Of a stretch of 2,337 bases of DNA, positions 1,069 through 1,267 are shown in pieces. The first letter of the stretch is position 1. Every line of letters begins with the position of its first letter. This DNA comes from Escherichia coli (GTDB lineage Bacteria > Pseudomonadota > Gammaproteobacteria > Enterobacterales > Enterobacteriaceae): NCBI RefSeq assembly GCF_024298765.1, contig NZ_CP101220.1; one strand, given 5' to 3'. The position numbers and the translations under genes are program-made. The notes beneath the pieces were generated by a model. It was not told the DNA's origin. It worked only from the letters and a program-made list of their open reading frames with translations, and made no database searches.

Positions 1069-1091
1069 CTCGCAGGTAATTTAGTTACCGT

Positions 1092-1120
1092 TTTATCGGT
1101 ATCTTATGTATGTTCCACAA
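1092..1120 (-). promoter_or_regulatory. Candidate sigma70-type promoter for the rep-like gene (minus strand -35 TTGTGG at 1115-1120, 17-bp spacer, -10 GATAAA at 1092-1097)
   Basis: Hexamers read on the minus strand; both are imperfect. Location between the iterons/dyads and the start codon fits an autoregulated rep promoter. Weak. Confidence 0.2.
1111..1119 (+). promoter_or_regulatory. DnaA-box-like 9-mer TGTTCCACA (two mismatches to TTATCCACA)
   Basis: Sequence match only. Position next to iterons is typical for iteron-type origins. A degenerate 9-mer like this can occur by chance. Confidence 0.2.
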
Positions 1121-1163: not shown

Positions 1164-1267
1164 CAGTATTCCGGTATTTGAAATACCGCTGAGCGGTATT
1201 TCAACCTCCGCTCAGCGGTAAAAACTTTCCCGCTGAGCGGTATATCTATTCCCGCTGAGCGGTATTT
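1164..1267. repeat. Iteron array: five direct repeats in exact 22-bp phase; four full copies of CCGCTGAGCGGTAT(T/A) starting at 1186, 1208, 1230, 1252, plus a degenerate leading copy carrying CGGTATTT at 1172
   Basis: Direct reading: CCGCTGAGCGGTATTT 1186-1201; CCGCTCAGCGGTAA 1208-1221; CCGCTGAGCGGTATAT 1230-1245; CCGCTGAGCGGTATTT 1252-1267. Start-to-start spacing is exactly 22 bp three times. The CGGTAT core recurs at 1172, 1194, 1216, 1238, 1260. The left half CCGCT-N-AGCGG is itself a dyad. Confidence 0.75.

Follow-up and report, generated by a model that had tools for sequence, protein, structure and literature searches.

Inverted repeats with iteron arms as probable autorepression sites at the rep promoter of a small RepL-type plasmid of Escherichia coli

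The DNA just upstream of the replication gene of a small Escherichia coli plasmid carries an inverted repeat, TACCG-N6-CGGTA, and, close by, a 9-mer that resembles a DnaA box. Does the inverted repeat act as an operator through which the protein that binds the iterons lowers its own synthesis, and is the 9-mer a DnaA box? Both ideas go back to a sequence-only reading of the whole stretch of DNA analysed here (2337 bp; hereafter, the window). The window represents an entire small circular plasmid of E. coli, matched end to end at 100% identity by NZ_CP080145.1, NZ_CP075712.1 and NZ_CP051705.1 (pSCU-125-5); it carries two genes: a NikA/MobA-like ribbon-helix-helix accessory mobilisation gene on the plus strand (134-559) and a minus-strand open reading frame, "hypothetical" in RefSeq, that we identify below as rep. 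The rep-origin segment (640-1335) is rare, being present in 11 of 5426 complete E. coli genomes, each time on a plasmid of 2.2-2.35 kb, and in six E. coli records of PLSDB; the plasmid outside this segment matches more than 1000 Col-type plasmids. The NikA/MobA-like relaxosome accessory gene is not accompanied by a relaxase, and the plasmid is typed as non-mobilizable; it would thus need a relaxase supplied in trans.

The rep gene lies at 649-1062 on the minus strand and encodes a short RepL-family protein of 137 aa with a winged-helix core. The sequence-only reading had begun the protein at a GTG at 1068, for a length of 139 aa; the RefSeq coding sequence (414 nt) and the homologues, which begin at an aligned methionine, place the start at the ATG at 1062 instead. 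A Shine-Dalgarno sequence, GAGGTG, can be read on the minus strand at 1066-1071, and a GAGG-like block before the ATG is conserved in homologues. Submitted alone, Rep gave no Pfam match at E values up to 1 and no NCBIfam match, and a PDB sequence search with it yielded nothing useful. Its sequence homology to the RepL family (PF05732) was found through relatives: many homologues carry PF05732 or the NCBI name RepL, Rep aligns at 24% identity (E = 8e-12) with RepL from sister plasmids in which 59% of the backbone is common to the window and the rep-iteron module is different, and hhalign of the clade profile against pSN2 RepL returned a probability of 81% (E = 1.2e-5). In line with the helix-turn-helix/winged-helix core of that family, an AlphaFold2 model of Rep (mean pLDDT 70) folds residues ~30-100, at pLDDT 82-92, into a winged-helix core, the best PDB neighbours of which in Foldseek were MarR, CRP and other winged-helix regulators, at weak E values of 0.01-0.1. 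The core, as modelled, belongs to a type known from repressors that bind operators as dimers, and Rep is the presumed binder of the iterons and promoter dyads described below.

Rep proteins of the window clade measure 132-137 aa and have no counterpart of the N-terminal 20-60 aa by which other RepL and pHW126-type Reps are extended, which brings them close in size to RepR', the N-terminally truncated repressor form of pIGRK. In plasmids and contigs of Arsenophonus (L006, L007, L008 and L012-L017), short RepL genes are tandemly duplicated, numerous within a genome and adjacent to HTH regulators and a nuclease-like gene of the PD-(D/E)XK kind. The elements that bear them measure 13-95 kb, and IMG/VR lists some as viral contigs too. 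Very short RepL initiators form a widespread and unstudied clade, represented in E. coli, Arsenophonus, Photobacterium, Vibrio and Providencia.

The inverted repeat itself, TACCGTTTTATCGGTA, was found at exactly 1086-1101 as TACCG-TTTTAT-CGGTA (dyad O2). With one mismatch or fewer allowed, TACCG-N6-CGGTA occurs once in the window against 0.03 expected by chance (5 of 200 shuffles), and the dyad of the sequence-only reading is therefore real. Its stated kinship with the iterons was borne out as well. Four iterons at 1184-1264 recur with a 22-bp period and belong to both the direct and the inverted repeat families of the window, each being palindromic in itself (TACCG-N5-CGGTA), a property absent from the sequence-only reading; their internal palindrome may be written (T)ACCG-CTSAG-CGGTA, and the iteron nearest to rep (1184-1198) is a perfect palindrome inside 13-nt perfect arms. 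CGGTA or TACCG occurs 11 times in the window against 3.15 expected, none of 200 shuffles reaching 11, and nine of the 11 copies fall within 1086-1264; the iteron core is thus truly shared by the dyad. The arms of O2 are those of the iterons, but its centre is A/T and contains one extra base (N6).

The dyad was also correctly placed at the promoter of rep. A consensus promoter scan missed this promoter, which matches the consensus at 8 of 12 positions, and we established it by conservation instead. Its -35 hexamer, TTTACT, lies at 1124-1129 and its -10 hexamer, TAAGAT, at 1101-1106, both on the minus strand and separated by a 17-nt spacer (1107-1123); the transcription start, taken at about 7 nt after the -10, is predicted at ~1094. 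O2 overlaps the last base of the -10 hexamer and the predicted start, spanning from about -7 to +9. A partner dyad, O1, overlooked in the sequence-only reading, lies at 1130-1145 (TACTT-TTTTCC-GGTA on the plus strand; TACCGGAAAAAAAGTA in rep sense), where it adjoins the -35 hexamer on its upstream side, from about -36 to -51, at a distance of 44 bp from O2. An extra CGGTA half-site is found on the plus strand at 1172-1176, between the iterons and O1.

Conservation of this arrangement was assessed on rep loci of homologues gathered from PLSDB, GTDB genomes, IMG/VR and metagenome assemblies. Twelve loci from E. coli, Arsenophonus and uncultured sources, with iterons of the TACCG type and Rep identities of 62-98%, align ungapped from O1 to the start codon. 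Invariant among them are the block AAGTATTTA, which holds the -35 hexamer (mostly TTTACA; TTTACT in the window), and two TAC-N10-GTA dyads, corresponding to O1 and O2, exactly 44 bp apart; the -10 hexamer reads TA...T in 12 of 12 loci at the fixed 17-nt spacing, the columns of the spacer keeping their length while varying freely in sequence. The arms of the dyads are complementary at 82.5% in register, compared to 20-43% when slid. The outer three pairs of O1 and O2 never vary; beyond these three bp the arms do, and the left arm is a complete TACCG in no locus other than the window and its 98%-identical sister. Since the invariant positions in the two dyads coincide in part with the -35 and -10 hexamers or adjoin them, some of this conservation belongs to the promoter itself. 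No significant covariation was detected in the arms of O1 and O2 in the 12-locus alignment, which is the expectation for a conserved protein site and not for an RNA helix. Between O2 and the Shine-Dalgarno sequence, a further plus-strand half-site (1075-1079; TTACC in rep sense) is represented by WTAC in 10 of the 12 homologues and is possibly a third Rep contact. It stands 23 bp from the left arm of O2, and a small GGTAA-N5-TTACC dyad can be seen there.

Relatives with other iteron sequences provided a further view of the same relationship, their promoter dyads being built from the arms of their own iterons. The promoter dyad is CTCAC/GTGAG, present twice, in Photobacterium carnosum (L011), GTAC in pKP13a (L037), GTCAC/GTGAC in the Aeromonas (L038) and Vibrio (L040) loci, TATCAC/GTGATA in Photobacterium leiognathi (L039) and ATAC/GTAT in L019. 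In a blind test of 10 loci of distinct specificity, in which an exact dyad with 5-nt arms drawn from the 5-mers of the locus's own iterons was searched for under shuffle control, such a dyad was found within 80 nt of the start codon in 4 of the 10 loci, against 0.09 expected from the shuffles. A score of 6-mer sharing between proximal and distal regions, with loci of the same specificity as controls, was uninformative and was dropped in favor of this exact-dyad test. That relatives carry dyads of their own iteron arms connects these promoter sites with the iteron-reading protein, and the link holds independently of the other genes of the replicon.

O1 and O2 are thus likely, in our judgment, to be operator sites of the rep promoter, read by the Rep that binds the iterons and lowering rep transcription. 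Rep, probably as a dimer, would recognise the same TACCG/CGGTA arms in O1, in O2 and in the four palindromic iterons. When bound to O2 it would cover the -10/+1 region and obstruct RNA polymerase, and when bound to O1 it would adjoin the -35 hexamer; as Rep accumulated, rep transcription would fall and Rep would be held near the level needed for loading the origin, where the same arms within the iterons would load it. The anatomy of the sequence, its conservation and the covariation of arms with iterons across relatives were read directly from the loci. That Rep binds, dimerises and represses in this plasmid, we infer from experiments on analogous plasmids. The earlier proposal of autorepression thereby gains support of an inferential kind, from the position on a promoter conserved in 12 homologues, the invariant TAC/GTA arms, the arm covariation in relatives and the experiments on pIGMS31, pIGRK and pHW126. 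That an initiator represses its own synthesis through inverted repeats resembling its iterons is textbook knowledge for plasmids, and in that respect the finding is an ordinary one. For the RepL family, it suggests a mechanism of copy control; a 2017 review stated that none had been identified for RepL/pSN2 plasmids.

Pure repression is an oversimplification, since the equivalent repeats of pIGMS31 and pIGRK also act as enhancers and IR1 of pIGMS31 belongs to the minimal origin. O1 and O2 might be additional Rep sites of the origin or of copy control, working by titration, handcuffing or an enhancer/origin function, rather than repressor operators. Their CGGTA arms continue the orientation series of the iterons, with successive spacings of 22, 22, 22, 22, 31 and 44 bp; IR1 of pIGMS31 acts as an enhancer inside a 258-bp minimal origin fragment, and the IR/DR region of pIGRK is an incompatibility determinant. 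As a replacement for the operator reading we nonetheless find this unlikely, because in 12 loci O1 and O2 keep their place at the -35 and at the -10/+1 of the conserved promoter, as repression predicts, and because the origin of pIGRK needs only CR and IT1-4 (PMC6854812). The two readings are in any case compatible with one another.

A second possibility concerns the 9-mer, TGTTCCACA, found on the plus strand at 1111-1119, which would be a weak but functional DnaA box that recruits DnaA to the origin or regulates rep. The sequence-only reading was right that the 9-mer is there and that it deviates from the consensus TTATCCACA at two positions; its reading as a DnaA box was not supported. Against TTWTNCACA it shows a single mismatch, which breaks position 2, it is conserved in the 98%-identical sister plasmid (L004), and DnaA boxes are commonly found in classical iteron origins. 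Matches of this quality nevertheless occur at the rate of chance, the window containing six one-mismatch matches to TTWTNCACA against 5.55 expected, with 93 of 200 shuffles doing as well, and no zero-mismatch match was found in the window. The 9-mer is located inside the 17-nt promoter spacer, the sequence of which is not conserved in the 10 other homologues; L004 alone retains it, and 18 related origin/promoter regions contain neither a zero-mismatch TTWTNCACA nor a near-match conserved in position. DnaA is also not named as a factor in the study of pIGMS31 (bioRxiv 10.1101/2022.12.05.519187). A functional box at this site is therefore highly improbable: we judge TGTTCCACA to be a chance match with no part in rep control, and the notion that DnaA boxes are typical of iteron origins, which comes from Rep_3-type plasmids, is not transferable to the family of the window. 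As a separate observation, the region ~150-330 nt upstream of rep in the Aeromonas veronii locus (L038; NZ_LT635655.1) is GC-rich and holds several TGTCCA(C/T)-type repeats (ttgtccatgcc, ttgtccaccc, catccacagg) that look more like DnaA boxes than anything in the window.

It is just as hard to see in the dyad a cruciform or hairpin nick site, that is, the double-strand origin of a rolling-circle plasmid, with the iterons as the "bind" locus of Rep. Rolling-circle replication has been assigned to RepL/pSN2 and pHW126-type plasmids, whose Reps show DNA-relaxing activity in vitro, and the dyad offers a 5-bp stem with a 6-nt A/T loop; yet the conserved stem amounts to 3 bp, too few for extrusion, the nick of pIGMS31 maps just upstream of CR, on the opposite side of the iterons, and a nick site would not be expected as a pair of equivalent dyads on either side of a promoter. 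That the dyad acts in RNA, as a leader hairpin of the rep mRNA or a weak terminator of plus-strand transcripts, is scarcely credible, for although a scan flagged 1086-1101 on the plus strand as terminator-like, such elements occur at chance frequency (2 vs 2.2), the predicted transcription start lies inside the dyad and leaves the left arm out of the rep mRNA, O1 has the identical geometry upstream of the -35, and the inner pairs are mostly unpaired in homologues, with no significant covariation. Both hairpin readings were rejected on conservation and position.

Operators and iterons, as compared under the operator reading, differ by a constant amount. In eight of eight locus groups with differing iteron arms or promoter arrangements, the operator dyad has the spacing of the iteron plus one base, with an A/T-rich centre: N5 becomes N6 in the window clade (O1 and O2) and in L042, N6 becomes N7 in L011 and L040, N7 becomes N8 in L038 and L039, and N9 becomes N10 in L037 and L019. 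The one exception is an additional upstream site of L039, with N6 (-1). No such rule was found in the literature compared on these plasmids. A change of 1 bp in spacing corresponds to about 34 degrees of twist, and the rule, read from the aligned loci, may mark two binding modes of a single protein. More tentatively, and with the odds in our view rather against it, one small winged-helix initiator of RepL-type replicons could read two classes of palindrome, the extra base pair deciding whether the bound complex is tight and inert, as a repressor, or strained and able to open DNA, as at the origin. If true, such a switch would let a 137-aa protein without a DnaA box act both as initiator and as sensor of copy number. 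The rule in itself offers a simple way into the question of how a single protein distinguishes an operator from an origin.

Beyond the iterons, the remaining elements of the origin were delineated by comparison. In rep sense, rep is preceded by an ssi-like element, a conserved block, the four iterons, an A/T-rich stretch with the CGGTA half-site and the promoter. The conserved block (1275-1325) emerged from an alignment of 21 loci and consists, in rep sense, of TAAGATAGATTCAnAGAnAGA (1325-1302) and CAAGGCYTAGAG (1286-1275), ~15-20 nt apart; it is common to all 21 RepL-type loci, the distant L003, L036, L037 and L038 included, and is on sequence grounds a candidate equivalent of the CR of the pHW126 family. 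Further upstream lies a GC-rich element (1364-1435; CTTCCGCTTCCTCGC...GCGGCGAGCGGT) with conserved ends, which we take to resemble the primosome assembly site region of ColE1/pBR322. Its ends, ACCGCTCGCCGCA...GAGGAAGCGGAA, are also found upstream of the iterons in L003, L036 and L037, and its predicted DNA fold was no better than that of shuffled sequences (z = -0.5 and -0.8).

These elements bear on the type of the replicon, which PLSDB/MOB-suite gives as Col(MG828). An Rfam search of the window at E values up to 1 returned neither RNAI nor any other family, its single hit, to a miRNA and located on the palindromic iterons, being spurious; a ColE1-type replicon with RNA I/RNA II antisense control is thus ruled out. 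Col(MG828) was probably assigned because of the ssi/mob backbone, which the window has in common with over 1000 Col plasmids. What functions as the replicon is the combination of RepL with the iterons, and the real replicon is now identified for a plasmid typed Col(MG828) in which rep had been annotated as hypothetical. Two sister plasmids of 2.3-2.6 kb, L003 (NZ_AP027663.1) and L002 (NZ_CP075673.1), have 59-67% of the backbone in common with the window at 92-94% identity. Their Rep genes differ from that of the window (24% identity, or none detectable), and other iterons and operators occupy the same place, an arrangement that, judged from the sequences, points to module swapping.

How the window relates to better-known replicons can be considered next. 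In classical iteron theta plasmids such as pPS10, F, R6K and pSC101, the origin contains direct repeats, an iteron-like inverted repeat covers the rep promoter, and Rep dimers autorepress. The logic of iterons and operator is the same in the window, and the authors of the pIGMS31 study drew the comparison with such plasmids (bioRxiv 10.1101/2022.12.05.519187). The differences from the classical Rep_3/RepE plasmids lie in the protein and in the origin: the Rep of the window has 137 aa, a single winged helix and no Pfam match (E up to 1), so that it is not an initiator of the two-winged-helix Rep_3 (PF01051) type, and its iterons are palindromic, with no DnaA box and with a PriA-type ssi-like element. 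With RepL of the pSN2 family of Firmicutes (PF05732), a small HTH protein of ~18 kDa, the window shares a homologous initiator; the pSN2 plasmids are, in contrast, treated as rolling-circle, with a dso and ssoA, and a layout of iterons and operators like that of the window has not been described for them.

The closest resemblance in layout is to the pHW126-like plasmids, the REP module of which comprises ssi, a CR of ~20 bp, four iteron-like repeats of ~20 bp with 2-nt spacers, IR/DR and rep (bioRxiv 10.1101/2022.12.05.519187; PMC6854812). Four repeats of about this length with a 22-bp period are present upstream of rep in the window (1184-1264). According to PMC6854812 (and Rozhon 2017 as cited there), the Reps of pIGRK and pHW126 bind the repeats IR and DR1-3, located between the iterons and rep, and autorepress; the origin is given as CR plus IT1-4, with ssi dispensable. 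The operators of these two plasmids consist for the most part of direct repeats that resemble the iterons little or not at all, in contrast to the dyads of iteron arms found in the window, and pIGRK has in RepR' a second, N-terminally truncated repressor, which is about as short as the Rep of the window.

In pIGMS31 of Klebsiella pneumoniae, RepM dimers bind IR1 and IR2 most strongly and IT1-4 as well, RepM represses its own promoter, and 5'-RACE locates the transcription start within the right arm of IR2; the authors point out a relationship between the IR and IT sequences (bioRxiv 10.1101/2022.12.05.519187). The window has, in the same order, an ssi-like element, a candidate conserved region, four repeats of 22-bp period and two inverted repeats before rep; O2 has the position of IR2, which bears the transcription start, operator and iteron sequences are related in both plasmids, and both Reps have a wHTH, in the window as modelled. 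The dimers and autorepression of RepM are experimental findings, and their counterparts in the window are predicted. Conversely, RepM has 201 aa and a long, variable N-terminus, with no demonstrable similarity to the 137-aa Rep of the window, and pIGMS31 encodes a MOBV relaxase where the window has only the NikA/MobA-like accessory gene. Hhalign of the clade profile against pHW126 Rep (E 0.24) and RepM (E 0.12), using sequences recovered by OCR from a supplement, gave no significant match, tblastn of PLSDB with a related Rep found none of pHW126, pIGRK and pIGMS31, and the published link of their Reps to RepL is itself remote, at the level of PSI-BLAST only. The analogy thus rests on layout, and membership of the pHW126 family, for which the case is weaker, is not claimed. 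By that analogy the window would nonetheless work like pIGMS31, pIGRK and pHW126. It is best filed among RepL-type replicons, with an origin laid out like that of pHW126, being neither Rep_3 nor ColE1, and it extends the pHW126-type layout to very short RepL initiators.
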